Below are positions 2,020 to 43,942 of a stretch of DNA of 64,000 nt, piece by piece. Both the position numbers and the translations under genes were made by a program. Source of the stretch: a virus. Under the pieces are notes generated by a model. The model worked only from the letters and a program-made list of their open reading frames with translations, made no database searches and was not told the DNA's origin. The stretch lies in the IMG/VR virus record IMGVR_UViG_3300045988_055118, positions 8,622 to 72,621 of that record; one strand, given 5' to 3'. Numbering within the stretch: position 1 is the first letter of the stretch; each line of letters begins with the position of its first letter.

Positions 2020-2110
2020 CTCGACATTGGAATTGGCATTGCTGACGTCATTGTTAGAATTGAAATAGCTGAGACCTGCATTGCTGCCATTATTCGCGTT
2101 GCTGCCTACT
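2020..2110 (-). repeat. DGR template repeat (TR), 91 nt, adenine-rich (AAY codons), noncoding, between target gene and RT
   Basis: Near-identical to VR1 (2221-2311) and VR2 (29053-29143). All 20 and 17 mismatches, respectively, fall at TR adenines in the manual alignment. Separated from the RT start by a 143-nt spacer (1877-2019). Confidence 0.8.
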
Positions 2111-2193
2111 AGCAGTACTTTTTTGCCAATCAACGGTTTTTAGAAGTAATATCCTACGATTTATCATCTAAATCGATTTTTATATTGTATATC

Positions 2194-3501
2194 TTAAGAT
2201 ACTCTATTCAGAGTCCTGAACCCGACATAGGAACTGGCATAGCCGACGCCAATGCTAGAATAGAAATAGCCGAGACCCGCACTGCCGCCATAATCCGCGC
2301 CGCCGCCCACCCGCAGCGTGCGAAGCGCTGTGCTGCTTGCGTTGCAGTAATGGTAATCGCAAATATAAGTAGTAGCACTTCCTCCAACAGTGGATGGAAT
2401 TATTTCAGCGGTTTCACCTAAGTCAAATGCCTTAATATAACCATCAGATGCTACTTCGTATCCTGCAACGGTTTTCTCTCCAACTACGTCGGTAAATTCC
2501 GATACGTTAGTAGTTGTATAGACAGTGCTAATCTCATTAGCAGCTGCTCTCACTATAACTACTCCGTCCAGGTTAGTCCAAATGTCTCCAAACGGATTAT
2601 CGAACCCTCTCCAGCGAGGTACTTTAAATGTATGAGTTGCTACTGTATTTGTGCCATCTTGAGCTGTACATTCTGGAATAACTAAATCTTTTACTCCAGT
2701 GAAGTTACCAAATTCATTGCAGTAACCACAAGGCGTAAGTGGATATGTTGCATTATATCCTGACCAACTTGTAGCTGCGTTAGCCCAATCTGTAACTCCA
2801 AGTCCCAAACCCCCTTGATGATATCCATCCGCAGTTAACTCTGCATTATATGCAGCCTAAGAATTAAAATTAGCATATTCAATGACATAATTCCAGTAGA
2901 ATATCCATTTGTAATATTCATAGCATAGCAATTCTGAACCAGCATTTGTTGCATATGTTCTCATAGTAGCTCTAGAAATATTAGTTCTAGGCTTTCCTAA
3001 ATCACTTCTGAATATATCCTTAGTTTCTAATTCTGTAGTTAGATAATCATCGTAGTTAGCTCTATTTCCTCCACCTCTAAATGCAGTAGTAGTATTAACT
3101 ACTGATACAGCTTTTGGAGTTGCGGAGACTGTGGTATCAACTGTACTTCTGTATGCATCTATTAATAGTTCAGGAATTTCTACCCATGAATCATCAATTT
3201 TGACAGTAGAAGTTCTAACCCATCTTTTGTTTCCATCGCTGCCAGATTTTCCATAAAATTTAGGAGTATTAACTCTTACTGTTCCATCAGTTCCATCTAA
3301 GACAGATGGAGTTTCTCCGTCTTCTTTATAAGACCAGTCATCTGGAAACAGATAGTAATTTACTACATCATTGTTTGCTACACAACCTCTATACGCTGAT
3401 TGAATAGGAAGAGATTTATGTAGCAAAGGATTACCTATTCTAGTAAGTTCCGGAGATGCTACTGTAACATCCCATTCTACTCCATAGGAATATAAATCCA
3501 T
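2194..3501 (-). CDS. DGR target protein (C-terminal variable domain), TAG-interrupted; N-terminus extends further upstream through additional in-frame TAGs
   Basis: ORF-track pieces 2857..3501 and 2194..2808 are in the same frame, separated by TAG at 2857-2859. The C-terminal 30 aa are encoded by VR1. Terminates at TAA 2194-2196, which is followed by further in-frame stops (TGA, TAA, TAA), so TAA is a real stop here. Confidence 0.65.
2207..2220 (-). other. hairpin (TTCAG-AGTC-CTGAA) immediately 3' of VR1; candidate DGR target-recognition hairpin
   Basis: Perfect 5-bp stem with 4-nt loop directly abutting the VR end, analogous to the hairpin/cruciform downstream of VR in characterised DGRs. 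Confidence 0.4.
2221..2311 (-). repeat. DGR variable repeat 1 (VR1) at the 3' end of the target gene
   Basis: 91-nt match to TR. 20 differences, all at positions where TR has A. Locally GC-rich (gccgccgcccacccgcagcg) in an otherwise AT-rich genome. Encodes GGGADYGGSAGLGYFYSSIGVGYASSYVG. Confidence 0.8.
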
Positions 3502-4460
3502 ATTACTATTTAGCTCAGTAATCTACTTATCAAGCTTTTGTTGTGCCTTCTACAATTCTTCCCAAGCCTCATTTAGCGCTGTAAATTGCTCTTCTAGCTT
3601 AGAACTTGAATCTGCCCATTCAGCAGTACCATCTGCTGAGAAAACTAGCATCTATCCAGATGCTCCTCCAGATGGAATATGTTTATTTCCAGAAGTAGTT
3701 GGATGTACATAATTATTAGCATTATTAGCTATAGTACTTAACTTTTCCTTCTCAGTTTCAGTATAATTGGCTTCAGAAAGTCCCTTTCCTAACTCCTTAT
3801 CTACTTTGCCTTCAAGCTCACCCTTAGTAGCTAATTCACTAATATCCTAATGCTCAGTTAAATATCCACTATCATTCTGTAACTAAGAAGTTTTAGTTGG
3901 AATTGCATTAGCCTTGGCATATGTCGTATCTATAACATTTCCAGCACCATCGTAAGTAGCTTTTAAATCGTATGTGGTTTCCCCAACCTTTATAGATTTG
4001 ATTGCTGCCATATCATTGTATTATTAAAGTTTCATCAACTACATCGTGATCTATTCCCTCTATGGAAGCAGTTAGGTCCTCAACAGCCTTCTACAATTCT
4101 GCTTTAGTAGCATAGTTCTTGAGAACTTCCTAGTCTACTCCAGAGCCTCCTCCTATACTTCCTCCAACAACTTTTACTGGTTTGGCAGAACTCTTAAACT
4201 GTCCTTCAATATAAATTGTTCCCATATTGTTTAAAATATTAATTGTTCATTTTCTCCATCTACCTCTACACTAGAACCTGGCTATAAAGCGTCTATCTTT
4301 TTCTACAATTCGGCTACGGCCTAGCTAATTAGTTCTTCTACCTCAGCTTTGGTGTAGTATCTCTCTATAAGATATTCGCTCCTAACATATCCAGTATCTT
4401 GTAAATCTTTTTCTCCATAGGTGCAATAATAAGTATCTTCTTCAGTCTTACTATTCTCAA

Positions 4461-4652
4461 CTAGGTCATCATAATCAGCTTGTGGTAAGCATACAAGTTT
4501 TGGTACTTCTTCAGTAATAGCAACTTGCTTGCCTCCAGCAAATAGCCTGTTATCTTCTGTGGTAAGTTTAACAGAACTCTCAATAACTTGCTCAGTTCCT
4601 GTTTCCTCAGAAGGTTCTCCAGTTGTTCCCTATTGTACTTCTTTTTCTCCAA
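4461..4652 (-). CDS. fragment of TAG-interrupted late (structural) gene
   Basis: ORF ends at TAG (4461-4463). Surrounded by a dense run of in-frame TAGs on the minus strand, with no long ORF in any frame under the standard code. Confidence 0.3.
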   Translation of the reverse strand: MEKKKYNREQLENLLRKQELSKLLRVLLNLPQKITGYLLEASKLLLLKKYQNLYAYHKLIMMT

Positions 4653-5829
4653 TTTTCTAAATAGTAATATCAGAAGTTTCTACTGATGTAGATTTCAAAA
4701 GCTCAGTGCTAAATTCTTTAGCAGCAGCAGCCTAATCATCCTGATATTTTTTCTAGGTAACAAATATGAAATCATCATCTCCGGTTTCAGGAGAGTCTCC
4801 CCTTAAACTTTCTTTTGTTACGTAATCTTCGGCTATCTAATCTGATAAATCAGATAATGACTATTGAGTAGCATAAGTAGACTGAGCATTTTCCTTAGTA
4901 AGAAATTTGTCATCAACCTGCTAAATAGTATAATAAGCCTTAATATCTTCTGTAGTAACGTAGTTTCCAAGTTTTTGCAAACCTTGAACTATTTCATCAA
5001 TCTACTTCTTGGAGTAATAATTTGTAGCAACCCAGGACTGATATTGATTGGTAGTATGATAATTCTAATCCAAATATTCCTTAGTAATATAAACCTTTGC
5101 ATCATTTGTGACGTCATATACATAGTAATATGTATCAGGCTCTACCGTCCCTTCCTCTACTAACTTTAGATACTCTTCTTCAGTTAATGTTACTAAGTTC
5201 GGAATATCCGATTCAGTAGCAATCTAATCTTCACCTATAAATAATCCTTCAGACCTAACGTCTACTACTAGCTAGCTCTCTCCCTCTACTACAGGAGATT
5301 TTATCTATCCAACAGTGATGCTTTCTAAGGAACCATCTCCATCTACCTTAAGAGTTTTATCTAACTCGTCTTGGATGGCCTACTAATCTTCCTCATATTC
5401 TTTCTTTGTAACGAAGACAAAATCATCTCCTTCCATTCCCTCTCCTCTAAGACTTTCTTTAGTAACGAAAATATCGTCTGTTTCTTCCTTAGTATAATAC
5501 TTAGTCAGGGATAGAGCTAAAAAATCATTAGAGACATAATTAGTAGTTAATTCTTCCAGTGTAGCATAATCTGATAGGCTGGCAATAGTGTTATCTAAGT
5601 CTGTTCTAATCTATACTACAGTAGTATTAAGGGCCTTCTGTTTTAATTGCTCTTCTATCTTTTTTCCCCATTCCGAGGATAGGTAAAACTAGTCATCGTC
5701 TAAGCTATCCTCATATATATAATAATATGTCTCAGCATGAAGATACGTTTTACTTTCATCTATGGGCCTAAAATCGTCTGTAGTATTCTCAGACCATTCT
5801 TTATATTCAGCCTCTGTACAGGTGATTAT

Positions 5830-6069
5830 CTAGATAGATTCATAGGATGCTTTCCATCCTTCCTTGTATTTAATCTTAGACTTATCAATTAGCATATAAA
5901 TATTTCCGTTATCTATGTTAGCAACGGTCATACCTTGATAAGCATACTTCTCTGGAATAGAATAAAGTTCGTCTAAGTTATTAACGACTGTTCTATTATC
6001 GAGAGGCTTCGGAGTTTCTACGGTTAAAGCGACACCTAAGGTAGCATCACCTGTATATTTAAATGCCAT
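5830..6069 (-). CDS. fragment of TAG-interrupted late gene
   Basis: Ends at TAG 5830-5832; same pattern as neighbouring pieces. Confidence 0.3.
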   Translation of the reverse strand: MAFKYTGDATLGVALTVETPKPLDNRTVVNNLDELYSIPEKYAYQGMTVANIDNGNIYMLIDKSKIKYKEGWKASYESI

Positions 6070-7016
6070 TATTGTGATAGAATAAAGTTAATTTGATGTG
6101 GCAATGCTGAGGAGTAAGTATCTTTCTTAGTCCATACCTTGTAAGTAAATCCATTTATCTACTCGGTAGACGTTTCCCAACCACTTAGGTCTACATTTAA
6201 ATATCCAAGTCCTCCATCTACGGTAAATGAATTTAACTATGTGTTACTTCCTGGCAATTTTATAATAGCCTTACCACTTAGTGAAAATGTGATAGTTCCA
6301 GACGATTGTCCAAAAGGAACTAGCGCCTATTTAATCACACTATCAGTATTACCAGAATACCAAGGATATGTGGCTACTACCTAAGCGGTAGCGGAAATAG
6401 AACCAGCTTCTACTCTCTTATCTGTAACTTCTCCTTTATTGTTTATCAAATATTCTCCAGCGGCATAACTCACTGTACCAGAGTGAGTATAAGTACCAAT
6501 AGAATTATATGTATCAGACTCTACAGGAGAACTGTTATAAGTAATAGTTTCTTGTCTGTCAGTTTCTTCTCCAGCATCATTCTTTATAAATGTAAGTGTA
6601 GGAGTTAATAAAGCAGTTCCTACTTCTACTATTTGAGAAGTAAAACTATAATAAAGCTATGGGTATACTAAATCTCTAACTACTGTTGGAAATAGTAAAG
6701 TATCAATAATCTCATTAAAGGGCTTGCCCTTAAGTTTCTCTACTGTAGTCCCTTCAATTACTGTTGAAGTAGTATCATCTGGGAGTTCTGTCTAATAAGT
6801 AGCTATAGTTTCTAAGTTAGTTTGTATATTAGTAATACTTTCAGTATTAGCTTCTACTTTAGTATTTGTCTCTTGTTGTGCTTCCTAAGTTTTCTATACT
6901 TCTTTCTTTGTTTCTTCTAGAGCAGGTTCAAGATTCTTAACATAGATACCTGGAAGGATAATAGAAGAGGTTTCCTCTCCAATCTCCTATTCTATTAAAT
7001 GAATAGCATTATCTTC

Positions 7017-7355
7017 CTAAGTAGATAAAATCACCTCTAAAGAATTATCTTCCTTTAGTTCTATAGTTTTGGAATTTTGGAGACTATTCTTAATCCAATT
7101 AAGAATGTTTTTATCAACATCTATATTCTCAATAGCATTATTCAACTCAACTATAGCTTCATTGATTTTTACTATTTCTTCAGATAGATTATTAATCCCT
7201 TTTCTATTAGTATCAATTTCTCGTTGTAAATCCTCCTTCAATACAGATATAGAAGTTCTAATATTGCTTATATCGACTTTCAGTTCTTCTATTGCTTCTG
7301 TATTAGATTCATATTCACTAATAAAGTATAGGGCATAGTCTAGGGCATCCTTCAC
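7017..7355 (-). CDS. coiled-coil protein fragment (tail fibre/needle-like), TAG-interrupted
   Basis: Heptad-rich sequence EELKVDISNIRTSISVLKEDLQREI...; GTG start in track; ends at TAG 7017-7019. Confidence 0.35.
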   Translation of the reverse strand: MKDALDYALYFISEYESNTEAIEELKVDISNIRTSISVLKEDLQREIDTNRKGINNLSEEIVKINEAIVELNNAIENIDVDKNILNWIKNSLQNSKTIELKEDNSLEVILST

Positions 7356-8041
7356 AGTATTAATACCTTCTGCAACGTCACTAGTATAGGTCCATTTTTG
7401 TTCTATATACTATACTAGGTCTTTTTGCAGTTCTATGGTTCCACTAATGTTTCCCCACAATAGACTCTACTCATCAGCAATACCTAAGTTCTTTCTTACT
7501 TTAGCTTTTTCTAGTTCTGTCCTATATTCTCCTAAATAGTTATTTCTTAAGAGAGGTATAGGCTCACATTTTATAGGCTTACCCTTTTTACCACAAGGCA
7601 CTATATCTGCGTTACTTACCGAAGTGTAAATAGACTGTATCATTCTAGTTTAATAATTGCTATTTAATAAATTCGTGATTATCTAGTCTTACAGGTAGGT
7701 TAATAAAACAAATTAGATTAAGAATATCTTGATAATCTGGTTTATATCCCTTTTTGAGTTTTCTTAGAAAATCCTCATACCTTTTAATAGCCTTTCTCTT
7801 AAGAGCATCCACAACCTATACGTTTATGTCCATGGTGGTGATTATCACAGAATCCTCCACAGGTACGGAACATCGCTAGTAATCTCTCAGCCTCCATGAA
7901 TTGTTTAAAGCATATTAAATAATCTATAATGTTAAGAGTCATCCATATGAAATCTCGAGCAAATATATCTGCTTCCTAATCTCTAGTTAGACACTTATTT
8001 AATAAAGAGTCAAAGAGTTTCTTACAGTAGTTAATATAACA

Positions 8042-8347
8042 CTATTGCAGATTTCCTGTAAAGAACACGTCTACCTTACATTTTTTGATAGTAGTTCCTT
8101 CTATATTTCTTTCAAGGATTTCTTTTACAGTACATTCCTCTAGCTCTCCATCTACTTCTTTATATAGCTTCTCTCCATCAGTTATATAGATAGTTTCATA
8201 ATACTCCTTGTATTCATCAGATGAATTTTCATACCATTTCATATTAGGAAGAATTATGTGGTCTACTACATAATATCCATCTTCTTTCACCTTAAATGTA
8301 CAAGAGTCTAAATCCTCTGTATGGTCATTGAGAAGTACGTCTATCAA
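8042..8347 (-). CDS. fragment of TAG-interrupted late gene
   Basis: Ends at TAG 8042-8044. Confidence 0.3.
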   Translation of the reverse strand: MIDVLLNDHTEDLDSCTFKVKEDGYYVVDHIILPNMKWYENSSDEYKEYYETIYITDGEKLYKEVDGELEECTVKEILERNIEGTTIKKCKVDVFFTGNLQ

Positions 8348-11300
8348 AGTAGCATCTCCTATACTAACTTTTATGATAGTATTTAGGGTAGCACTTTCAC
8401 TATACTTATAAGAATCATAGGAAGTTACTACCTCTAAATCTTCATCAATATACTATCCATATTCCTTTGAAAAGTCTTCAATAGTTATTTCCCCGTTAAT
8501 CTGGGTATGTATATCAATACTAAATTCCATATTATAATAATTAAGACTCAGTAGTAGGCCATTGACCATATTGAGCAGGAGTAGAAAATGGTTTCCACTT
8601 ACCTTCTTGTCGTATACGTCTAGACATAAAAACTGAACTAAATGATAAACTAATATCTTGAGGATAGTCTGTCCATGTATATGACTAACCTTCAGGGGTC
8701 GGTGGTAGACTATTTAACTTACCAGCTGGTTCCCCATTCCAATAATAATTATAGTCATATGCTTTAGTTGGAGTAACAGTCGTTGTTTCATGTCCTTCCG
8801 AATCTACATATAGAGGATTTCCATCCTCATCTGTTTTCTGCTTATACTCAATAACTGGAGTTATTCCCTCAGTTCTAGTGTATATATTCTAGATAATAGT
8901 AGAAACATCGCTTGCTACAATCTCATAAATAGTAGTTCCCTGAGATTCGTCAGCCCCCTAGAAAGTAAATTTAGTTCTTTTCCAGATATATGGATTCTCT
9001 TCAGTTGGAAGTTCAAAAGTATCAGTCCACTATTTAGTAGATAATTTTATCTCAGATTCTTCAGCAGTGTCAGCAGGTAAGTAATGAATCTTAATAATAA
9101 TATTATTTACCGCTTCACTAGAACCAGAAAGGTCTGACACCTATTTAAATAGTTTCTTTAAATCTTCTTCCACATTTGATTTAGAACCAGAAGCATTACT
9201 AATAATTACTGAACCATCTGAAATAGGATAAATCTATTGCTAATCCTTATTATATACAATTGTTCCAGTTGCCATATTAATGTATTTGTCTTATTTTGTC
9301 ATTATATGGATTTCCATCATGAAGCTAAGCCAACTCTATTTCAGTTCTCTTTTCTTCTATATCCATTTGTCTATCTTTATAAGTAGAATCAGACTGAGCT
9401 TTAAGCCAGTTAACTTTATATTCTAACTGCATCTTCTACTATTCTAATCCTAGTCTCTATTCATCTAAGCTTTCAATCTTTTGCTGAGCTTTCTATAATT
9501 CTTGCTATAACTACTGAGCCTATTGAGAAGTTTCTTCTAATTTTTCTTGTAGTTGCTGAAGCTGATTATTTTCCTCTTTGCGAACTTGAACAGCTTTCTT
9601 AACCTTATATTTAAGGTCTGTCAGACTCTTAGATGTAAGAGCCTCAAAAATAATATCTGGGTCCATCTGTTGACTTTTTACGAACTCTGGAATGATTGCT
9701 TTTATAGTCTATAGATCTTCCATCACTTCTGAACTAGCAGTAATATGAATATCGTAGTCAGTAACAGTAAAATACTCAGGAAGTGCGGTGAATATCTGTT
9801 GATATTTATCCCCAAGTATAATAGTTCCAGTTAATCCTTTCTTATAAGTAACTTTAGCCTAATTAAGACTATCTAGTAGTATCTCGCAGGTTATTAAATC
9901 CATCTGCTAAAAATAGTGCTTAGTTACTATATACGAGTTAGCTACTCCCTACTTAATATTAGTAACTGCATCTCTAGTTTCTATACCGTTAAGTCGTTCC
10001 CTAAATACTCCAGTTATTGATGATGTAGTTTGTTCTACTGATTGAATAGCTAATTCAATAGCCTATACAGCCTATGCTTTTAAGGTATCATCAAATCCGT
10101 TATATATCTAGTTTGGAGCTTGCTGTCCATCATTCCTACCTTCTTGGCTTGAGTCTATCCACATGATACCACCTTTTTTATAGGCTAACCATTTTTGTAC
10201 TCGTTCTGGCCATTTAACTCCTAAGTTGGTAGGCAACAGAGACATATCCATAATAACTCCGGCAGTACCACTATTAGCTATTAGATTATCTCTATAATAG
10301 TTTAATAAGTCGTATCTATCCTACAGATGTGCACATTTTAATATAAGAGAATAAGGCTACTAAGAGCGATTTAAGAAATATACTCCATTTACCGATAAAG
10401 AACAGAAGTTGGGATTATCTTTAGACCTCATAACAGTCTTGTCTAATCCTCTAAGAATATATATCTCTTCTCCTATTCTGATAGTATTGTATCTCTACAT
10501 CACAAAATCATCATCTGTTTCAATCCATTCAACATCATAGACTGGGATTAACTAGAACCTATGAGCACTATATTCATTGTCTGGATAGCCGGGAATGGTT
10601 TCATGATTCTAATCTTCATTTACTACTGTACAAGTATCTCCATATACTCTTCTATAAACAGCAGCTGAATCATCAGCTCGCCATTCATCTTTTAGTCTTC
10701 TTAAATCTTCTCTAGATATTTCTTTGCCATATTTAGCTAAAATCTAACTCTTACTCATCCACTTTCTTACTACAACTCTATATGAGTTCCTTACATATGG
10801 AGATTCTGGATTTCTATCAACAAATGTATTAAGTGGGTTTAATACCTCTATTTCAATATTAGTTCCAGAAGCCGATGATTTCACTCTAAAGAATGTATAA
10901 CCAGTAATTAATAAGTCTGTTAGTAACTAACGTAACTTAGTAATTAAATCGGTTTCTCTGGATTGCATAATATAATGTAATATATTCTAAGCTGCAATTT
11001 CATATTGAGAAATAAAGGATTGGTCAATATCCTATATAATTTTATCTAACTAAGTCTTTACAGCTTTATCAGTAATATCCTTGCCATCAATAAACTTAAG
11101 AATTGAATTACTTAAATGGTCTTTCAAAAACTTTACTATTCCCTTGGTTATTTCTAGCTATTTTTCTCTTGTTATATTACTGATAGTATCTGAATCTTTG
11201 CAAGAAATTTTCGGAAGTATAGGAGTTCCTAAATATTCTCCAACTAGGGCATCTACGTGTTTCTTTAATAAAGGCGTAAACTCTACCGAAGTGGGGCTAC

Positions 11301-11389
11301 CTATTCCGAAGTTTTCTTCCAGATAACGGAACTATTCAGGATCTCTTTTACCATTATAATAATTATAAGCTTTCTGTAACTCATACTTA

Positions 11390-11851
11390 TCATATACAAG
11401 TTCCGCAATAGCCTCGTTTGTCTTGTCTATCAATTCCTTCTCTTTCATAACATAAATTATGTTGTTCTGGAGGAAGTTTAGTAGCGTTATAATACTTAAC
11501 TCTTTGTAACTTCCTACTTCTTAATTCTTCCTTAATAAATGGCAGAAATTCTTCGTCTGGTAAATCTGCTATTATTACTAATGGCATTTCTGACCTATCA
11601 AAGTTAAAAGAGACTTTATACCCAACTGGGTCTAAACTCTCAATATCTAGTCCGCCTATATACTCCATTTTGTACAAGTCCCTCATATATTCTAGGATCA
11701 CTTGTTTCAACTCTGTATGGGTCATCATATTCGTTTCTTTGCATATTAAGTTCAGGAGTTTTCTTAGTTGGAATAACTCCAAATCTTTTAATTCCTCTCT
11801 CGTCGTAATAGTAACCAAAATCTTGGAACTATTCAACTTCTTTCTCCACAA
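11390..11851 (-). CDS. hypothetical late protein (ends at TGA)
   Basis: 153-aa ORF; stop TGA at 11390-11392, showing TGA is used as a terminator in the late block. Confidence 0.4.
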   Translation of the reverse strand: MWRKKLNSSKILVTITTREELKDLELFQLRKLLNLICKETNMMTHTELKQVILEYMRDLYKMEYIGGLDIESLDPVGYKVSFNFDRSEMPLVIIADLPDEEFLPFIKEELRSRKLQRVKYYNATKLPPEQHNLCYEREGIDRQDKRGYCGTCI

Positions 11852-12062
11852 GTACGGGCTGTCTTCCTGATAGCTCTTGGTCTGCTAACTCAGTCATACC
11901 TACAGCGGCTACAATATCATACTTACCCTTATTTTCATCATTATATGCAGTGAACTATTCTAGCATTTCTTCGAACCATATAGTATGGCAATAGTCTTCT
12001 ATAAAGGCGGCTGTTAAATCAGTATGCTATTCGATTATAGTTTTTGTAGCAGGAGTTCCATA

Positions 12063-13769
12063 CTATTTAGTAGTTCCATTTCTAACGTCAGTTAGAGTAG
12101 CTCTTGGGCGCTTCATAAAATAGTTAAGGCATCCTTTTTCTCTAGCCCAAGTAACCATACCCATACGAGTAGCTTCTATATTTATTTTACAATTATAATA
12201 GCGAGCTAAACACATAGCTATTTTATAGGCTTCTCTGATGTCTCCAGGTCTATCCTTGTACATAGCAACATACTGAGGGTCATTCATACCAAATGCACGT
12301 TTCTTAATCGTTATGCAGAAATCAGACGGGTCTCTGGTTTCCTTAGAAGTCTAATTCGCTCCAATATCAATACCGTCTATACCTGCTACGTATAAGTCTC
12401 GCATCTCTTTATAAACTGGAACTTCAAAATCCTAGCCATTATCTTCTGCCTCCTATCTAAGCTTTTCCATTTGTTCTTTATATAAGTCAGACCATATTGG
12501 ATGCTCTAGAATTTTTACTTTACCATTGCTGTTAGGAATCCATTTAAAACCATCAATGTTATCCTAAGTATGTTTATTATTTTTGTAAAAATAATCAATA
12601 TAACCACATTCGGGTCTTGGACCAATTTGTTTAAGTCTTATATTAGCTATCTATTCGGCAACTAAAATTTTATTAAACTTATTAATACCTTCTAGATTAA
12701 ATGCTTCTTCTGCATTCCAACAACGTTCAGCACATTTCTTTAGGTAGTCTTCTGGTACAGCTAATAGATTATCTCGCTCCTCCTATAAGAATTTCTTATA
12801 TTCCACAGTATTACATACTCCTCTGTGGTCCATAAATTCTGGATTCAAAGATTGTATAAAGTATGGAATAAAGAATCCACTCTCTATAGTAGTCCCATCC
12901 TAAGTCCAATTATGTCTAAATGGAAGAATCTTATATGCTCTTGGATTATAGTAAATCTTTTTTAAGCCCTCTAGAGGAGCACCCATATCACCGCCAGTAC
13001 CTCCAAACAACATTGTTCCACGAGGCATACCTTGAACTTCACAAAGTTCTTGACCTTGTACCACAGCGGTATCAAGTCCAGGCCAGGAACCAGCTTCATC
13101 ATATATTAATAAATCTACACGGTCTCCACGAATGTTAGATGGTTTAGCTCCGTTAATTGCTACAACCTCAGATTTAAATCCTACGTCTTCAAACTAACCA
13201 TTTATTTTGATTTGTTTACCTGATTTCTTTCTCAAATCCTGGTCAATAAGTCGCAATTTAAAAAATCCTCCTCCAGTACAGGTATTTAAGAATGTAAGAG
13301 CATTGTCAAACTTACTAAAGGTACCCTTAAGGAAGGTATCATTAAAGCAAGTAATCATAACCCTACTTCTTCTAATAACAGAGTACATACGAGCAGAAAG
13401 AGAGGCGTTTATTTCAGAGAATCCAATAGAACGAGCTTTCATTAAAGCTGCGTGCTTGTGTAGCACCCTAGCCATCTATAGATAATGAAAGAACATATAA
13501 TGTGATGCAAAGAATATTGGGAAGTCATTATCAGTACCCTCACCAGAGGCTTTCTACTAGTCAATAGTAGGTAACTAATAGAAATTTAAGAAGAAGTAAT
13601 TATCTCCAGTAATGGTGTATCCATTAACTGTCATTCCATACTTACATCTTCTATATTGCTCTTTCCAAAATTCGTTGTACCGCTTACTATCTCTAAGGTA
13701 GGGACAGTATTGACCAGTTCGTTTATATACTTCCCTAGTCTCGGTAAACCAATCTGGATTAAAGTCCAA
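12063..13769 (-). CDS. candidate terminase large subunit, TAG-interrupted
   Basis: ORF-track pieces 12063..12287, 13194..13475 and 13575..13769 share one frame and each ends at TAG. KARSIGFSEINASL resembles the RQxG(K/F)S/T terminase ATPase P-loop region. The C-terminal piece (RPGDIREAYKIAMCLARYY...IEATRMG) is terminase-nuclease-like. The assignment rests on motif resemblance only. Confidence 0.3.
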
Positions 13770-14819
13770 TCCATGAGTTTCGTCAATAGGTCTGTATCCA
13801 GTTATTTCATAAGATAAGGTAGGGTCAAATACTTCTATTTTATCTCCTATTTTAACATCCCAATAGTCAGAATTTCTGACCCTTTCCTCTCTTATTTTCT
13901 ATACTAATTCTCTAGCTTCTTTAGCATCCTCTTTCTATTCTTTTTCTCTTACCTAATCTACAATATTCTATATTTCTTCAGGTAATATCTTTTTTCTTGG
14001 CATAATTAAAAGTCTCCTGGGTCAAAACCATCCACAGCTCCAGCTCTAACAGTAGATTGTTCAGTAAGTTCTTTCTTAACCTAGTCTTCTAGTGTTATGA
14101 GTTCTTCATGAACTTTGTGAAGGGTAGCCATTTCCTTCATTACTTTTTCAGCCTGGAATACTGGCTTGCCGTTATTATCACGCTCATTTAAATCTACAAT
14201 AGTTTCGAAATAATCAATAAACTAGTCTGCAGCTCTTTTAGCTGCTTCTAGTAATTTTATTGACTTGTTTGAATCTTGTAACGCTCTGTATTTCCTACAA
14301 GCTTCTCTAAATATAGGGTCATTAAATTCTGACTCTGTCAATCCAGAATCACTAATAGCTTCGTCATGTCGTTCATGTTCCGAATACTAACTGTACGGAC
14401 TTTTCCAGTCTATAGCTAAATAAATGTAAGATAGTTCTCTAGTAGCTCTATCCTTTTCTGCAGATTTATCCCTCTAGATTAAAGCCTTAAATTCCTTAAC
14501 TAGCAATATCTCTGGTTCATTTATTTCTAGCTATTTAGTTAAAGTGTTATAGTTAAATACATTCATAATCATTAATCATTATCATACACATTAGATAATC
14601 TTATTATTTCTTTTTCATTTTGGAACCGCACTTATTGACTTTCATTTTGGAACCACAAGCGTCTTTCTTAGCATATTGTTTTCTGTCAGGAACCCATTTT
14701 CCTCCCTGGAAATTACCCTTATGTCCCTTATTGGCCATAGTTTCCTAATCATTGTATTTATTGATTGATATAGAATCTCTTGAGGCTTCGTCTCTAGCAG
14801 ATTTCATATCTTTCTTATA

Positions 14820-15029
14820 CTAAGCTCTTCCAGCCTTAAATTTATCAACTTCATTAGCTTTCTTAGTAACTTTAGTTCCTTTTTGTGCTTTCTGGCAAGC
14901 TTTACAGATTCTACCGCCTTGCTTAAAATATACAAGCTCTTCTCCTTCTGGACATACTCCTTTTAGCTTCTTATAATACTCAAGCTTAGCTCCAAGCCTA
15001 GCCATTACTCCTCCTTGCATTTTCTGCAT
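14820..15029 (-). CDS. small basic late protein fragment
   Basis: Lys-rich 69-aa ORF ending at TAG 14820-14822. Confidence 0.3.
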   Translation of the reverse strand: MQKMQGGVMARLGAKLEYYKKLKGVCPEGEELVYFKQGGRICKACQKAQKGTKVTKKANEVDKFKAGRA

Positions 15030-15392
15030 AAATTCCTGATACTTAGCTTTAATGCCGTCTTCACCTAATTGTTCAGCATAAGCTTGTAAATCCTATTCAG
15101 ATTGTACTTGTATTCCCTACGCAGCGGCATCTTGTATTAGATATGCCATAAATGCTTTTTGTAATTCTTCCTAGTTAGCCATTACTCTTCTACTTTAATT
15201 AAATCCTTAGTATTAAACACTGCTTCCTACATAAGTCCGGAATCAGTAAACCATCTACATCTTAATCCTCGTAATCCTTGGTTATCTTTAAATAAAGCTG
15301 CTTCTCTTCTTAGAACAAGCATAACTGGAGAATGCATTACTTTACACTACCGTAAAGTAACACAATCCCCAGGCTTAAAATAAACTTTTTCA

Positions 15393-15995
15393 TCAATTGT
15401 TTCCATACTTCAATTCGTTTCTTCTTTCAGTTAGCTTTTCGTTAACTACAGCCATAATTCTGTTCTCATTAACTACAACAAATCCAAACTTGTAGAACGG
15501 AACCATGCACTCGCTAGCTATTGTATAGAATACTATATCTCCAGGTTTTAGGAACTCACACTTGTGCCCAACCTCAATAACAGTACCCACTTTAATAAAT
15601 TGTTGTTCTTCTTCTATTTCTCCTGTTTCATTAGATTTATATGTTGGAGCAAACCCACCTAAGTCTGTAATTAATCCACTCTTAGTAGTTTTAATTTTTT
15701 GAAACGGATTTTGTTCGAAAGGTTTAATTAATGCATACCCATACATAGGCATAATTTCTACACCATTCATATCCTCAGATAATGATTTGGCGTAAGATTC
15801 TAAAGCTGCATTATGTTTCGAGAATTTATCTTCTAATTCATCTACTGCTGTATTGAATCTTTCCTGTTTTTCTCTTAATAAAGTTTTATCTGCAGCTTCT
15901 CCATTTACTATAAGGTGCTGTCCTGTACCTTCCATACCAGTTATAGCTAGTGCTAGTTTCTCATTACTGTTCAATTCTGTTCTTAAAGTTTCCAT
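15393..15995 (-). CDS. GroES-like domain protein with N-terminal coiled coil
   Basis: Intact 200-aa ORF (TGA stop, no TAG). The C-terminal half has GroES-like spacing (ALIKP...KTTKSGLI...GTVIEVG...LKPGDIVFY). Confidence 0.35.
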   Translation of the reverse strand: METLRTELNSNEKLALAITGMEGTGQHLIVNGEAADKTLLREKQERFNTAVDELEDKFSKHNAALESYAKSLSEDMNGVEIMPMYGYALIKPFEQNPFQKIKTTKSGLITDLGGFAPTYKSNETGEIEEEQQFIKVGTVIEVGHKCEFLKPGDIVFYTIASECMVPFYKFGFVVVNENRIMAVVNEKLTERRNELKYGNN

Positions 15996-16096
15996 AATTC
16001 ATTTTACCATTTACATAAATCACAATGTTCATCTTCTATTCTAGTTTTGTTCTCTAGTATACAACCACACTCCTCACATACTTCTCCAAATGAAGT

Positions 16097-16342
16097 CTAT
16101 AATTTATGAGGACAAGTATTACAAATATTTAATCTTGTGGTTGCTAAATCTTGATTAATTCCAAATATATGGAAATATATACTCTTCAATATTACTAAAG
16201 GTTTAGTAAATATTGCTTTAATCCATTTCTTTGGCATCTTTTCAGTAGGTTCTTGAGTCATAAGTATATAAGCCTTAGTAGGGTTAGCCATTACTGGAGT
16301 CCCATATAGTAATAAATTATTTACCATTTCTTCGCAGGACAA
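16097..16342 (-). CDS. hypothetical protein
   Basis: 81-aa ORF; overlaps the next ORF by 22 nt. Confidence 0.3.
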   Translation of the reverse strand: MSCEEMVNNLLLYGTPVMANPTKAYILMTQEPTEKMPKKWIKAIFTKPLVILKSIYFHIFGINQDLATTRLNICNTCPHKL

Positions 16343-16536
16343 TGCTTCTTCTCATTAGGTATCTTTAATTCCAGTAGACATCCACATCCTTTTATATACC
16401 CTTCTTTTGGGCCAATACTTATGTCATTGTTTTCTGGATTTAAATACAACTGTCCATTACATATTGCATCTTCTTGATTACATATTGGACAGCGTCTACA
16501 TATTTTCCATCTTTCTTCTATTTCCTCTAGTGTCAT
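16321..16536 (-). CDS. Cys-rich zinc-ribbon-like small protein
   Basis: CRRCPIC...CNG...CGC...HCP pattern; TAA stop. Confidence 0.4.
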   Translation of the reverse strand: MTLEEIEERWKICRRCPICNQEDAICNGQLYLNPENNDISIGPKEGYIKGCGCLLELKIPNEKKHCPAKKW

Positions 16537-16538
16537 AA

Positions 16539-17453
16539 TTAATATTCAATACGTTGACGTTTCTTTTTATTTTCTGCCAATATAGATTCTTTCTTGTAAA
16601 AAGAAAGCATTCTTATTACTTCATCTTTTAAGTATGGTAAGTGATATACTGTCATGTTATCACTGTGGTCGAAGTGTACTAAAACTAAATCTTCAATTTC
16701 AAATTCTGGGTTTTTCTTCTGAATCATCCAGGCGTAAGTACTTAGCTGAAGGGCATAATGCCAATAATTAACATCATCTAAATTATTTAGAGGATACTTC
16801 ATCTTAACTGATGTCTTAGTTTTAGAATTAAAGAAACTCTTTGTTTCTATTTTTTTATTAGTCTTCCAGTCACCAATAATTATCTTATTACCTCTTTTAA
16901 CTAATAAGTCAATTTGTCCAGCTATTCTTAGTTTTCCGTCCTCAGATACTCTAGAGATTAGATACTCAGGATATACCCCATTCTCCAAATCTAGATTGTT
17001 ATAGTCTTTTATACACTCAAACTTGCCACCTATTTGATATTTACTTAGGTCTATATCCTTCTTCTTTTTGTAAAAAGAGTTTTCCAAATCTGCATGGATT
17101 CTAGTTCCTCTCTCGCAAGAGTTTCTGTTCTCCATATCCCATGCATCTAAGATAGCTTGTTGTTCTTTATTAAACTCGTCTTCTGTAATGTTATGAAGTT
17201 CAAGTAGAACTTTGTCAAATTTCTTAGTATTCAGCAGAGACTTTTTCTCGATAGCCCAATCTTCTTTAGGTAGAAGTTTCTCTAGTGCTTTATAAGCTGA
17301 CCAGAACTCTTTATCAAAGGGTTGGGTGAAAGAATGAATTAAAGTCGTTACAGATATAAATTTCTGTTCTGGCTTTGTAACATCATAATAAATATGAGCT
17401 TCCTCTTCGAAAGCTATGTTCCCATTTTGTTTTGTAATTTTACTTTTGTCCAT
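16539..17453 (-). CDS. PD-(D/E)xK family exonuclease (RecB/YqaJ/Cas4-like fold)
   Basis: 304-aa intact ORF. IAGQIDLLVKRGNKIIIGDWKTNK (D...D/ExK) followed by YALQLSTYAWM (QxxxY) motifs. Confidence 0.55.
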   Translation of the reverse strand: MDKSKITKQNGNIAFEEEAHIYYDVTKPEQKFISVTTLIHSFTQPFDKEFWSAYKALEKLLPKEDWAIEKKSLLNTKKFDKVLLELHNITEDEFNKEQQAILDAWDMENRNSCERGTRIHADLENSFYKKKKDIDLSKYQIGGKFECIKDYNNLDLENGVYPEYLISRVSEDGKLRIAGQIDLLVKRGNKIIIGDWKTNKKIETKSFFNSKTKTSVKMKYPLNNLDDVNYWHYALQLSTYAWMIQKKNPEFEIEDLVLVHFDHSDNMTVYHLPYLKDEVIRMLSFYKKESILAENKKKRQRIEY

Positions 17454-17567
17454 TAGTCATAATTCATTTAATCATTTATCACATTTATCTATATTTATTT
17501 GATACTTTTCAAGTATATTAATATTCTTTGTAAGATACAAATCAATAAATAATACATTATATTAAAA

Positions 17568-17909
17568 ATGTCTAATATGACAAAAATGGTAACATTTGGA
17601 TGTCCAATTTTTAAAAACGGGTCAGGCATTCATATTAAAGAGAAAAACAAAGGTAAATTTACTGCCTCTGCTAAGGCTGCAGGATAGTCTGTACAGGAAC
17701 ATGCTAAATCTGTACTAAACAATCCTAATGCTACTCCTCTTCAGAAGAAGCGTGCTAACTTTGCTAGAAACGCGGCTAAATGGAAACACGAAGATGGAGC
17801 TAAGATACATAAACCAAGTGGACATAGATCTATTCTAGATAATGGATGGATTCCTACTACTAGATTAAAGAAAGGAAATTATGGATTAATTAAAACAAGA
17901 AAGCAATGA
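17568..17909 (+). CDS. small basic protein with one in-frame TAG (recoded)
   Basis: ATG 17568, TGA 17907-17909, single in-frame TAG after ...AKAAG. Not in the ORF track because it is split by the TAG. Confidence 0.4.
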
Positions 17910-17984
17910 ACGCTGTAGTTAAATTAATTAAAGAATTTATACTTAAGATATATCTTTATTTACTATTTATATTTAATAAGTAAT

Positions 17985-18176
17985 ATGGACTATAATAGAG
18001 CAACTCTTTATGCGGCTACTGGTCGTACTTTATTACTCCCTGGCTGGAAAGGGTATTTTTATTGGGACTATACTAAGAATGAATTAAATTTTAGAAATGG
18101 AGACTATCATTTAGATAACAAATAGCTCAAGGAGAAAGGAGTTATGGAACGTAATGATTGGTATTATATAATATGA
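17985..18176 (+). CDS. small protein with one in-frame TAG (recoded)
   Basis: MDYNRATLYAATGRTLLLPGWKGYFYWDYTKNELNFRNGDYHLDNK-TAG-LKEKGVMERNDWYYII; ends TGA. Confidence 0.3.
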
Positions 18177-18301
18177 TAATTAAAAATAATATTATACCGT
18201 TTGGAGGTTATAAAGTAATTAATCTGTTTGGATTAATATTTACTAAGTCGGATTTGACTGATGAGGATAAGAATCACGAGAATATCCATTCAGTATAGAT
18301 T

Positions 18302-18520
18302 TTGGAATGTGCAATAGCGTTTGCAATACTTATATCTATATTATTTGGATTAGAATGGGTATGGTTAGCTATTCCATCTTTCTATATCTGGTATGGATTA
18401 GAGTATTTAATTATACGACTATTAAGACTTAAAGATTCTCAAAATGATTGCTACAGAGATGTAAGCTTTGAAGAAGAAGCTTATATGAATGAAGACAATT
18501 TACAGTATCTAGAAGGATAG
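18302..18520 (+). CDS. small membrane protein (ORF ends at TAG; may read through 15 more codons to TAA)
   Basis: Hydrophobic N-terminus AIAFAILISILFGLEWVWLAIPSFYIWYGL. Confidence 0.35.
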   Translation: MECAIAFAILISILFGLEWVWLAIPSFYIWYGLEYLIIRLLRLKDSQNDCYRDVSFEEEAYMNEDNLQYLEG

Positions 18521-18609
18521 AGAAAGATGTTTTCATGGATAAAATATCTAAAAGTTAACGCATAACAAAATAGGCGAGCCTAGACTTAATTGTCTAAGTT
18601 CGCCTATTT

Positions 18610-18813
18610 TTATTTACTATTATACGTACAAGTGATTCTGTTTGGCTCTTCCCACCAAGGTTTATCTGAAAGTGGAGTTCTGATGCTATTGGGCCAATTT
18701 ATAATTGGAGTAGTTTCCTCTACTATAGCCTCCATTATTTTAAATAATGTATCCAAGTCTAGCTCTGGAAGCAGCTCATGAATATTAGTTATTGTTTTCT
18801 TATAATTTATCAT
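18610..18813 (-). CDS. hypothetical protein
   Basis: 67-aa ORF with TAA stop; opposite-strand ORF 18590..18781 judged spurious. Confidence 0.3.
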   Translation of the reverse strand: MINYKKTITNIHELLPELDLDTLFKIMEAIVEETTPIINWPNSIRTPLSDKPWWEEPNRITCTYNSK

Positions 18814-19032
18814 ATCCTTTAAAAGTGTTGTTAATAATTACTTTCTCTATCGTAGTATTTACTGACATATTAGTACGATACACTTAGCTTATTTAAGTTG
18901 TCTAGATAATCTAAGAACCATTGTTCGTTTTGTTTTCCTTCTTCTACAATAGTATTAATTAAAGATTCTGTAGCTAATAGTGTTATTTCTGCTAGTTCCT
19001 CTAATTCCGATTTAGTAAGTTCGTTATATTTT

Positions 19033-19347
19033 TCAATCAAGTTTAACATAATCCATCCAGTCTTTTATATATGATTTACATTCTTCCAAATCTGGATAGA
19101 TACTTGTTATAGAGCATCCAGTTTTCGGATTTTTAAAGTGGTGCATCTTAGCCTCTTCTTTTTTCTCCTCTTCTGTATTTCTATTTAATGTTCTATTCCA
19201 ATAGTTGTACTTTTCATCTAACATTTCCATATCACATTCCTCTAATATTTTCATATTAGGGTTATTCATTATCTTGTCGTATTTTCTCTTTAAATTAGAG
19301 ACTTTGACAACATCATTTCCATTTAATACAACTGCACACTGTTTCAT
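19033..19347 (-). CDS. hypothetical protein
   Basis: 104-aa ORF, TGA stop. Confidence 0.4.
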   Translation of the reverse strand: MKQCAVVLNGNDVVKVSNLKRKYDKIMNNPNMKILEECDMEMLDEKYNYWNRTLNRNTEEEKKEEAKMHHFKNPKTGCSITSIYPDLEECKSYIKDWMDYVKLD

Positions 19348-19571
19348 TTTAATACCTTATAAGTACATATCTTACCTATCTGTTTTCCTTGAACTGTTAT
19401 TTGCGGAAGAAAATAGCAGGCTTGATTCTCAAATTCTTGAGGTACAAAGATATAATCAAACTTACTTCCAACTACCTTCTCACAAACTTTATTCCAATCG
19501 TCTCCCTCTTCTATAATAAGAGTTTTAGCTCCTGTTGGAGTTACTACATAATTCTCATTTAATTTTATCAT
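19344..19571 (-). CDS. hypothetical protein (start trimmed to avoid tRNA)
   Basis: The ORF-track N-terminus overlaps the suppressor tRNA. Internal Met (MIKLNENYVV...) at 19571 chosen as start. Confidence 0.35.
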   Translation of the reverse strand: MIKLNENYVVTPTGAKTLIIEEGDDWNKVCEKVVGSKFDYIFVPQEFENQACYFLPQITVQGKQIGKICTYKVLK

Positions 19572-19589
19572 AACTATTAATTTTGGCGT

Positions 19590-19661
19590 TGCCCTACTAG
19601 GATTCGAACCCAGACTAAATGATTTAGAGTCATCTGTGCTGACCATTACACCATAGGGCAG
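19590..19661 (-). tRNA. amber suppressor tRNA, anticodon CUA (reads UAG), Gln-type
   Basis: Manual fold: acceptor TGCCCTA/TAGGGCA with U1-A72 (Gln hallmark), D arm GTGT/GCAC, anticodon stem GATGA/TCATT, loop CTCTAAA (U33, CTA, A37), T arm CTGGG-TTCGAAT-CCTAG. D and T arms nearly identical to the genomic tRNA-Gln(TTG) at 34204. Confidence 0.8.
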
Positions 19662-19798
19662 TAACTTATTTCTCTTTTAGAGATTTATTTTCTGCTGCCA
19701 ATTTCTCTAGTTCTTTTCTTAATTGTTCATTTTCGTGAAATAAAGCCTGCATAGTAGCGTTGATATTAGCTAATAGTATTCTCATTTGAGCAACCTAT

Positions 19799-20200
19799 TC
19801 ATACATAAGCTTTCAGTTGTTCAATTCTCTTTTTAGCTATATCTGACAATGCCATTTTGAATTTAGCAATACCAGCTCTTACTGTTTCTAACTTGCCGCT
19901 TTCTAAGCATTCTTGTATTTTATGAACTTCAAGCTCTCCTAGATATTCGCATACATCTATAAATAAATCATCATCTAGAGATTCTAAATATTTCTGGAAT
20001 TGGTCTACCTCTTCATTAGCTAGACAGCTTTCTTCCTTCTATCTTTCATAAGATATTAATAAGAACAAAGAATCGTCGGTAGATTCGGACTTAATAGTTA
20101 GCCCATTACCAGACATATAATATTCTTGATTCGTATTAATTGCCTCAACTAGCTATTTAAACTAGTCCTAATTTAACAATGTTTCTAAGTCTGTAATCAT
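19799..20200 (-). CDS. hypothetical protein with four in-frame TAG codons near N-terminus
   Basis: ATG at 20200; frame open to TGA at 19799-19801 if TAG is sense. Confidence 0.35.
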
Positions 20201-20518
20201 AATTGTTTTCTTTTTAGTTATATACAACAATAACCTCCGAAAAGTTAAACGCAAAGTTAAAAAATTCTAATTCAAATATTATACATATTTTATATATTAA
20301 GGGGAAAGCCGGTACAGGTACTTTATATAAATAGCCCCCTGGGGTTATTATAAATTCCGACTTTTATATTTGGAGGGCAATTACCTAGATTCCAAAAATT
20401 CATAGAGTGAGTGTAGTGGCGGTCCACAACCCCTTTAGTCCCCCCCTGTATATTGATATAAAACTAAAACAAAAACAAAAATCAATTTCCAGTATTAACA
20501 TTTTAAAATTTCAAGATT
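20201..20518. promoter_or_regulatory. divergent intergenic region between late (minus) and plus-strand blocks; probable divergent promoters and/or origin
   Basis: 318 nt noncoding, AT-rich with three short GC-rich islands (ggggaaagccggtacaggtac; tagccccctggggtt; gtggcggtccacaacccctttagtcccccctg). Confidence 0.4.
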
Positions 20519-21211: not shown

Positions 21212-21945
21212 CTCTAAGGTACTATGAGTTTTAAATAAAGTGCCCACATGAACCCCATCATCGGAACGTTGGTTAACGGGGAAAACAACATCACAACAAA
21301 TCAAATCAAAGTTTTTGTTTAGTTTTAGGATTATATCTGGCAGCTTGGAAAGACAAGCAAAATCTTTATACCTATCTGCTAATAGGTTTAGTGTTCAACG
21401 CGAAAATTCGGTAAAGGAAGGAGAGAAATTGTCCACTAAAAAGACCCTCAATTTCCGGACTTTTTCCGATTTTCAAAAAATCCGCCAGAGTAGGAGTTAT
21501 ATAGCTCACACTCTCTATGGACATTATTTAGTATTTAGCCTATAAAAAGGCAACAAAAAGCGAGGCTACGCAGAAGAGCCTAACACCAAAAATAACTGCT
21601 ACAAATTCTATGTGCATATTCGCAAACTTGAGCACTATAGGATTTAGGTTGAGCTATAAGGATTGGTCACTTATAGCAATATTATGAGTACTGCTGATAT
21701 GTCAGTGACCGTACATATCACATATAAAATATGTTATACAATTATGTTAGAAGTTGCCAGGTCTAAGAAGCCTGATTAAAATCTCTAGATAGTAAGAGAG
21801 AACCTCATAAGGGTTCATTTTCCATCTCGAACCTATTCGCAAGTTTATAGACTAGCTATCTATAAATTTAGTGAACGTTGATAACGTCCTCAGCATGGAA
21901 AACTGAGAAATAATCTCCTATCTTATTCTAGATATAGATAGGATT

Positions 21946-43936: not shown

Positions 43937-43942
43937 CATAAT

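Follow-up and report, generated by a model that had tools for sequence, protein, structure and literature searches.

How are the many in-frame TAG codons in the late genes of a large crAss-like phage read, and by which tRNA? The question is raised by a 64,000-nucleotide stretch of the IMG/VR virus record IMGVR_UViG_3300045988_055118 (positions 8,622 to 72,621 of that record), referred to here as the window and numbered from its first letter. On its leftward, late strand the window carries a tRNA gene with the anticodon CUA, which we name Sup-1; a second suppressor-type tRNA, Sup-2, lies on the early strand. The most probable answer, to which we give a probability of roughly 90%, is that Sup-1 is a glutamine-type amber suppressor tRNA of the phage and decodes TAG in the late genes as glutamine (Gln). 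A preliminary description of the locus had proposed that Sup-1 reads the late TAGs as Gln, and the proposal is supported in that Sup-1 is the sole CUA tRNA in the window and TAG aligns with Gln.

The Sup-1 gene and its conservation

ARAGORN predicts 28 tRNA genes in the window, including one with the anticodon cta at 19588-19660 on the minus strand, a range that takes in position 74. The Rfam tRNA model RF00005 delimits the same gene at 19589-19660 (66.3 bits, E=3.2e-12; the gathering score is 29), a score that ranks among the best of all tRNAs in the window. The coordinates given before, 19590-19661, were one base too high. The minus-strand sequence of the 72-nt gene is TGCCCTA TG GTGT AATGGTCA GCAC A GATGA CTCTAAA TCATT TAGT CTGGG TTCGAAT CCTAG TAGGGCA A, running from T1 at 19660 to the discriminator A73 at 19589. 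It forms a cloverleaf with a 5-bp anticodon stem, a 4-nt variable loop, an 8-nt D loop containing GG and the T loop TTCGAAT, and it has U1-A72, G2-C71, C3-G70, G10 and A73. The anticodon loop CTCTAAA occupies 19623-19629 on the plus strand (C32, U33, C34, U35, A36, A37, A38). The clean cloverleaf with U33, CUA and A37 of the preliminary description is borne out by this reading and by the Rfam score, and the suggested run of a tRNA caller did return the anticodon cta. The minimum free energy (MFE) fold of the single sequence did not yield the cloverleaf (z = -2.3), and the structure therefore rests on the covariance model and on covariation.

ARAGORN labels the gene tRNA-Pyl, which is its name for any tRNA with a CUA anticodon. 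True tRNA-Pyl has a 6-bp anticodon stem, a 3-nt variable loop and a small D loop without GG. The CUA anticodon is the sole likeness between the two, and no atypical feature of tRNA-Pyl is present in Sup-1. A tRNA-Pyl identity was rejected, given the ordinary cloverleaf and the alignment of TAG with Gln.

Sup-1 has no encoded CCA, only C74 at 19588. The same is seen in all 28 tRNAs of the window, where a C directly follows the discriminator and CCA is found in none (the next base is A, T or G). It is also seen in 74 of 76 tRNAs of the loci that we number L003-L056 and, as a tendency in small samples, in 11 of 13 tRNAs on Bacteroidales-labelled contigs and 20 of 30 in Patescibacteria. The pattern is probably a general feature of 3' processing and not specific to the phage.

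To place the gene among its relatives, 54 loci were fetched around homologs of the TerL protein of the window, with TerL identity ranging from 97% down to 49%. In 45 of the 54 loci the 10 kb upstream of TerL contain a tRNA on the same strand as TerL, and its anticodon is cta in every one of the 45. The nine loci without a late-strand tRNA are short contigs, have another arrangement or are not recoded. Identical copies of Sup-1 are present in IMG/VR and in GTDB-binned contigs. An alignment was made of 12 distinct sequences, namely 11 Sup-1-type tRNAs and the tRNA-Gln(UUG) of the window. In it, 98.8% of the stem cells are paired and 13 of 21 pairs show changes on both sides (compensatory changes). 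None of 500 shuffles matched the observed covariation, and no slid register came close either. In each of the 12 sequences the acceptor stem starts with U-A or U-G, and the loop CTCTAA(A/C) is conserved. Judged by these sequence comparisons, Sup-1 is a genuine, conserved phage tRNA gene with a functional-looking fold, and it is under purifying selection.

The opposite possibility is that Sup-1 is a decayed or chance tRNA-like sequence and that the TAG-interrupted open reading frames (ORFs) are pseudogenes or assembly artefacts. Decay is effectively refuted by the score of 66.3 bits, the compensatory covariation and the synteny in 45 loci. The late ORFs, moreover, are intact with respect to TAA and TGA while containing 116 TAG, and the pattern is kept across many independently assembled contigs. 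We give this explanation next to no probability.

The meaning of TAG and the glutamine-type identity of Sup-1

TAG is concentrated in one part of the window. The minus-strand ORFs between 304 and 15406 contain 116 TAG in 4682 codons (24.8 per 1000), which amounts to 49% of TAG+CAA+CAG, and the 12-13 intact late ORFs in this block all terminate in TAA or TGA. The block also holds tail-fibre-like genes. Under the standard code, ORF coverage of positions 1-16,000 is 0 in five of eight bins and reaches at most 0.66; with TAG as a sense codon it is 0.65-1.0, and treating TGA as sense changes nothing. Elsewhere TAG is scarce, with 1 in 853 codons of the minus-strand ORFs at 15390-19580 and 26 in 10329 codons of the plus-strand early genes, mostly in doubtful ORFs. 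The phage still stops mainly at TAA. Annotation of the window needs two codes, with TAG=Gln applied to the leftward late genes and the standard code to the rightward early ones, since TerL, the portal and the tail genes break into fragments under the standard code.

Of 63 early ORFs, five have TAG as their stop when the standard code is applied (plus strand, 22805-23269, 42522-43103, 44274-44948, 45405-45830 and 47116-47382). A TAA or TGA follows 2-8 codons beyond in each, and these resemble reserve stops that would serve once TAG is being read through.

To read the meaning of TAG, codon-level alignments were built for nine late genes with 13 relatives, whose protein identity ranges from 26% to 100% depending on gene and relative. 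Where a window TAG faces a sense codon in a relative, that codon specifies Gln in 238 of 529 cases (CAA 162, CAG 76), followed in frequency by Glu (63), Thr (34) and Lys (33), with His at 7. The share of Gln is higher in close relatives, at 28 of 33 columns in L014 and 33 of 43 in L023. In the reverse comparison, 267 window codons opposite a TAG of the relatives are Gln codons. With a substitution table built from the same codon alignments, the log-likelihood of TAG=Gln exceeds that of the runner-up, Glu, by more than 600 nats. The distribution of the base following TAG is no different from that following CAA or CAG. On this evidence TAG in the late genes is best read as Gln, and the in-frame TAGs to which the preliminary description had referred are confirmed for the late genes, in which TAA and TGA are kept as stops.

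The tRNA itself points to the same amino acid. The closest paralog of Sup-1 among the 28 tRNAs of the window is tRNA-Gln(UUG), at 78% identity, and the next closest reaches 69%. The two D arms are one loop base apart and the T arms differ by two bases, so the earlier statement that these arms are nearly identical is accurate. The U1-A72 pair had also been named as the mark of tRNA-Gln. The match holds when taken with A73, but the pair is not a unique marker, as it is found in tRNA-Thr(UGU) too. The combination of U1-A72 and A73 occurs in the window only in Sup-1, Sup-2, tRNA-Gln(UUG) and one odd tRNA-like gene. Bacteroidales-labelled tRNA-Gln(UUG) genes likewise have U1-A72 and A73, and Sup-1 matches Bacteroidales tRNA-Gln further in G2-C71, G10 and the length of 72 nt. 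The Bacteroidales-labelled set comprises a Bacteroidales metagenome-assembled genome (MAG), Ca. Equimonas, Prevotellamassilia, Alloprevotella and a 'Bacteroides sp.' MAG contig. BLAST with the Sup-1 region finds annotated tRNA-Gln genes in the crAss-like phages cr7_1, cr124_1, cr60_1 and cr130_1; it also matches unrelated phages, such as the tRNA-Gln-TTG of Acinetobacter phage AM24. Overall Sup-1 resembles tRNA-Gln most.

The odd tRNA-like gene (39406-39488, plus strand) is called tRNA-Tyr(ata) by ARAGORN and has good acceptor, D and T arms. Its MFE fold has a 15-nt 'anticodon loop' (ACCAAUAAAGCAUUA), and the anticodon call is doubtful; the gene may contain an intron or be non-canonical.

Late-gene decoding, its difficulties and a second suppressor-type tRNA

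In the scheme that we envisage, the early plus-strand genes, which use the standard code, would be translated by the unmodified host system. Leftward transcription from the strand switch would then produce a polycistronic RNA with Sup-1 embedded between ORFs, from which the tRNA would be freed by host RNase P, by processing of its 3' end and by the enzyme that adds CCA. Host glutaminyl-tRNA synthetase (GlnRS) would load it with Gln, and Sup-1 would insert Gln at UAG against the competition of release factor 1 (RF1), allowing the structural genes to be translated. Because a tRNA needs no translation and this one is located at the head of the late array, the arrangement would be feed-forward, with transcription of the late operon supplying its own decoder. 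Co-transcription, processing, GlnRS charging, timing and the outcompeting of RF1 are all steps that we infer.

Several points weigh against this reading of Sup-1, the first of them from its D arm. As a control, the exact 20-nt D arm TATGGTGTAATGGTNAGCAC was searched in cellular genomes (loci L057-L176). Gln had been expected, but the matches listed contain at least 98 tRNA-His(GUG) genes of Patescibacteria against at least 15 tRNA-Gln genes; the arm is common to Patescibacteria tRNA-His(GUG) and Bacteroidales tRNA-Gln(UUG). As a marker of Gln it was rejected, since an exact copy is present in 95 extracted Patescibacteria tRNA-His genes. Body likeness by itself thus becomes weak evidence, and the sharing is a caution for any tRNA identity read from a single arm. 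Positions 26-72 of Sup-1 do not discriminate between the two types either, with identities to cellular tRNAs of 0.63 for His and 0.61 for Gln. Unlike the D arm, the acceptor end does separate them: the Gln type has U1-A72 and A73 and no G-1, whereas G-1 and G1 occur in every one of the 95 tRNA-His genes extracted. A tRNA-His identity was rejected on these grounds, as Sup-1 has C at position -1 and A73, and the phage's own tRNA-His has G-1 and C73.

These findings bear on the possibility that Sup-1 does work as an amber suppressor but carries His, Glu, Lys or Tyr in place of Gln. The exact D arm, found mostly in Patescibacteria tRNA-His(GUG) among the matches listed, would agree with it, as would the presence of Glu and Lys among the commonest non-Gln residues at the TAG columns. 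Gln at TAG has been demonstrated in crAss-like phages by mass spectrometry (PMC9523058). Within the window, the counts at those columns (238 for Gln, but 7 for His, 63 for Glu and 33 for Lys), the advantage of more than 600 nats for Gln and the lack in Sup-1 of the G-1 and C73 shared by the 95 tRNA-His genes and the phage's own tRNA-His make a different amino acid extremely unlikely.

Glutaminylation of Sup-1 raises its own difficulty. The anticodon of tRNA-Gln is YUG (U35, G36); Sup-1 retains U35 but has A36 in place of G36. This change defines a suppressor and is identical to that in supE. E. coli GlnRS recognises the anticodon mainly through U35, and glutaminylation of amber suppressors is well known. 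Sup-1 nevertheless has C3-G70 and A73 where the E. coli GlnRS identity set has G3-C70 and G73, and A36/A38 depart from that set as well. A73 and a third pair other than G3-C70 are, however, likewise seen in the Bacteroidales tRNA-Gln(UUG) genes, and the E. coli identity rule may not be applicable to the host.

Nearly all relatives in the codon alignments, furthermore, are themselves recoded. Two partial relatives are not, and for this reason L051 and L053, with TerL 49-50% identical and free of in-frame TAG, were used as an extra comparison. Q is found at conserved TerL TAG sites (LNFY[TAG]L against LNYY[Q]L, KING[TAG]F against ING[Q]K, and LVAE[TAG]IANI against IIAD[Q]LASI). The rate of Q matches at TAG columns is about that at window CAA/CAG columns, with a Q background of 2.8%. 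The homologous positions that the preliminary description had named as worth checking are thus occupied by Gln in both comparisons, in 238 of 529 cases among the relatives and at these conserved sites.

The final difficulty is quantitative. For genes with 20-28 TAG, decoding would have to succeed at no less than about 95-99% per codon according to our computation; for the portal, with 28 TAG, 90% per codon would yield 5% full-length product and 99% would yield 76%. This efficiency exceeds what classical suppressors reach against RF1, and further means of defeating RF1 are therefore likely. Pfam searches with ten large proteins and a six-frame motif scan found no RF1/RF2, GlnRS or other aminoacyl-tRNA synthetase in the 64-kb window of the ~186-kb genome. 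Sup-2 could share the decoding work.

Sup-2 has the anticodon UUA and could read UAG by wobble. In the relatives, the opposite-strand tRNA has the anticodon cta in 18 loci, tta in 7, ctg in 1 (L047) and a one-base loop deletion in 2; the counterparts of Sup-2 include those in L003, L007, L014, L015, L021, L023 and L047. The anticodon of Sup-2 is polymorphic even among near-identical genomes, whereas that of Sup-1 is invariant. Since CUG is the true tRNA-Gln anticodon, its presence in L047 shows a one-step path from Gln tRNA to suppressor for the Sup-2 gene. An RNA of the RAGATH-14 family lies 26-55 nt upstream of Sup-2 on the same strand in the window, and four out of six relatives that were tested show this arrangement too (L007 1719-1890, L014 1245-1418, L015 1697-1890 and L023 1064-1236, all on the minus strand, 166-183 bits). 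Our literature search found no paper naming RAGATH-14.

It is conceivable from these data that TAG means Gln but that Sup-2, or a host or other factor, is the main decoder and Sup-1 is redundant. Most relatives do have a second CUA tRNA beside RAGATH-14 on the early strand, the required decoding efficiency suggests extra factors, and recoded phages without a detectable suppressor have been reported (PMC7886860; bioRxiv 10.1101/2021.08.26.457843). We consider this very unlikely in view of the invariance of the Sup-1 anticodon in 45 of 45 loci against the variation on the opposite strand. The window, in addition, has no cognate CUA tRNA other than Sup-1, and in the distant clades L004, L005, L035 and L040 Sup-1 is the only one of the two within the 10-kb flank.

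A more elaborate idea, which we offer tentatively and consider unlikely, makes the two tRNAs a code switch. Sup-2 would be a dispensable or tunable read-through primer, perhaps processed or regulated through RAGATH-14. Sup-1, invariant, at the head of the late array and on the same transcript as the late genes, would be the obligatory feed-forward amplifier. If this were true, the orphan RNA motif RAGATH-14 would acquire a role in the biogenesis of suppressor tRNAs, and the UUA allele would be a natural ochre/amber suppressor in a phage with TAA as its main stop.

Gene surroundings, the phage and known systems

Sup-1 is found close to the head of the late gene array, with 540-860 nt between it and the strand-switch region; this agrees with its earlier placement on the late (minus) strand near a divergent control region. 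The same description had put it at the boundary of the recoded block. This is right as to the proximity of the array head and no more than approximate as to the block edge, as the dense block starts at about 15406, 4.2 kb downstream. The GC skew flips sign near 20 kb, gene orientation switches at about 20.2-20.5 kb, and the intergenic region is presumed to be the site of divergent promoters. A sigma-70 promoter scan around Sup-1 gave 16 sites against 16.8 expected, no better than shuffles, and no dedicated promoter or terminator can be claimed around the gene. Features of the window are collected in Table 1.

Table 1. Positions of Sup-1 and of other features of the window.
Feature	Position	Strand	Remarks and basis
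Sup-1 amber suppressor tRNA (predicted)	19589-19660	-	72 nt, anticodon CUA; ARAGORN and Rfam
Sup-1 anticodon CUA (TAG on the plus strand)	19625-19627	-	Read from sequence
tRNA-Gln(UUG)	34204-34275	+	Closest Sup-1 paralog in the window; ARAGORN, Rfam
Sup-2 suppressor-type tRNA	21946-22015	+	Anticodon UUA, U1-A72/A73; ARAGORN, Rfam
RAGATH-14 RNA	21749-21919	+	Rfam RF03145, 174 bits
Strand-switch intergenic region	20201-20518	.	Between leftward (late) and rightward (early) arrays; gene orientation, GC skew
133-aa ORF	19799-20200	-	Upstream of Sup-1, 4 TAG; syntenic in relatives
46-aa ORF	19666-19806	-	Upstream of Sup-1, 1 TAG; ends 5 nt before Sup-1
75-aa ORF	Starts 15 nt after Sup-1	-	ORF list
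TAG-poor minus-strand stretch	15393-19572	-	Downstream of Sup-1
3-gene cassette	17568-18565	+	Interrupts leftward array; 4 in-frame TAG
PD-(D/E)XK nuclease gene	16539-17453	-	Pfam PDDEXK_1
GroES-like gene	15393-15995	-	PHROG GroES match
Dense TAG-recoded late/structural block	304-15406	-	ORF coverage, TAG counts
TerL, 787 aa	11640-14003	-	20 TAG; matches annotated crAss-like terminases
Portal	9277-11448	-	28 TAG

The gene order around Sup-1 is conserved in relatives and consists of a 131-137-aa gene, a 46-aa coiled-coil ORF (in some clades), the tRNA and a gene of about 104 aa, followed further downstream by a 304-aa nuclease gene, a 200-aa GroES-like gene and then TAG-rich genes. The 131-137-aa counterparts of the 133-aa gene have 0-4 TAG depending on the clade, and none in more distant clades. 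Searches of PHROG and Pfam assigned no function to the ORFs flanking Sup-1. In the cassette that interrupts the leftward array, TAG makes up 44% of Gln-type codons, so that it forms a small recoded module on the 'early' strand; its 130-aa membrane protein matches PHROG 15610 ('protease', E=1e-31).

The window belongs to a large crAss-like phage of about 186 kb that probably falls in the 'Zeta' group and has a Bacteroidales host. Its TerL aligns with annotated terminases of crAss-like phages over about 80% of the length, at 25-28% identity (E down to 6e-44), and with two human-gut phage contigs that lack annotation, at 43-44%. This TerL has 2552 relatives in the protein database, the closest of them on contigs of 180-195 kb. 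A PD-(D/E)XK nuclease in the structural array is a crAss-like hallmark (Yutin et al., PMC7886860), and the nuclease gene on the structural strand of the window conforms to it. The portal of a relative gives a faint P22_portal match. Assignment to the Zeta group, whose genomes span 145-192 kb (PMC7886860), is based on the 180-195 kb relatives, the many tRNAs, the TerL variant P0003 with its inteins and the deep TerL branch (28% identity to classical crAss, 43% to MT835470).

Several side observations concern the phage and its genome. TerL is enlarged by about 0.3-1.2 kb in some relatives (L047 10001-13522, L052 10001-13529, L034 10001-12681), and the 1131-aa variant P0003 contains Hint/intein and LAGLIDADG-type Pfam domains (PF05204, PF05203, PF14528), which fits the description of the Zeta group as intein-rich. 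Contigs about 99% identical to the window are filed under bacterial MAGs, including DXLM01000001.1 (L132/L110; 186,052 bp, 'Bacteroides sp. HRGM_Genome_0403') and CALEBD010000406.1 (L138; 'uncultured Clostridium sp.'); these GTDB MAG contigs are almost certainly this phage, mis-binned. Early-region genes on the plus strand (56870-58420, 53976-54992, 31031-32989, 25041-26000) specify auxiliary products: a nicotinamide/nicotinate phosphoribosyltransferase (NAMPT_N and NAPRTase), an OmpA-like outer-membrane protein, an SPFH/Band-7 protein and a product with a weak match to radical-SAM. Rfam also reports a tmRNA at 43376-43939 on the plus strand (63.6 bits, gathering score 47). The match covers 564 nt, compared with 374 positions in the model, and stops 4 nt short of a tRNA-Ile, and ARAGORN makes no tmRNA call; it may be a phage tmRNA with an insertion.

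Suppressor tRNAs that turn TAG into Gln are already documented in crAss-like phages, and Sup-1 is an instance of exactly that. Yutin et al. 2021 (PMC7886860) described 243 crAss-like phages with TAG-to-Gln or TGA-to-Trp reassignment, mostly in late genes, reported suppressor tRNAs, notably in the Zeta group, and traced the emergence of a UUA suppressor from Gln(UUG). Borges et al. (bioRxiv 10.1101/2021.08.26.457843) proposed a switch from standard early to recoded late genes and charging by host GlnRS. Peters et al. 2022 (PMC9523058) showed by liquid chromatography-tandem mass spectrometry (LC-MS/MS) that TAG is Gln in crAss-like phages of 94 kb and 191 kb with annotated suppressor tRNAs. To these the present case adds a clean, controlled example, with covariation, an invariant anticodon and codon-level exchange of TAG with CAA and CAG. 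More unusual are the polymorphic early-strand Sup-2 and its linkage to RAGATH-14, both of them side observations here.

The code-15 Zeta crAss-like phages show no essential difference from the window: both have a crAss-like TerL, many tRNAs and a phage CUA tRNA, and in both TAG=Gln is confined to late/structural genes while early genes keep the standard code. The genes that RefSeq annotates as 'tRNA-Gln' in Burzaovirus cr7_1 and cr124_1 (Suoliviridae) are CUA suppressors, 83-86% identical to Sup-1, and like it they lie on the structural strand, a few genes from the strand switch and near a GroES-like chaperonin gene. These phages differ from the window in genome size (about 100 kb), in a TerL only about 27% identical and in having dUTPase and tail protein genes downstream of the tRNA. 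E. coli supE (glnV/glnX) resembles Sup-1 in its tRNA-Gln body, UAG-reading anticodon, retained U35 and insertion of Gln. supE, however, is a point mutant of a chromosomal gene, with weak-to-moderate suppression in a cell where UAG remains a stop codon, whereas Sup-1 is a dedicated, conserved phage gene that would serve up to 28 TAG per gene, and whose C3-G70 acceptor stem and A73 follow Bacteroidales tRNA-Gln and not that of E. coli. The Lak megaphages and the Garnet, Amethyst and Topaz phages share with the window the late TAG-to-Gln recoding, a phage suppressor tRNA, the low-GC gut setting and Bacteroidota hosts. Lak and the other code-15 gut phages are unrelated lineages, and some encode an RF2, of which none was seen in the 64-kb window.

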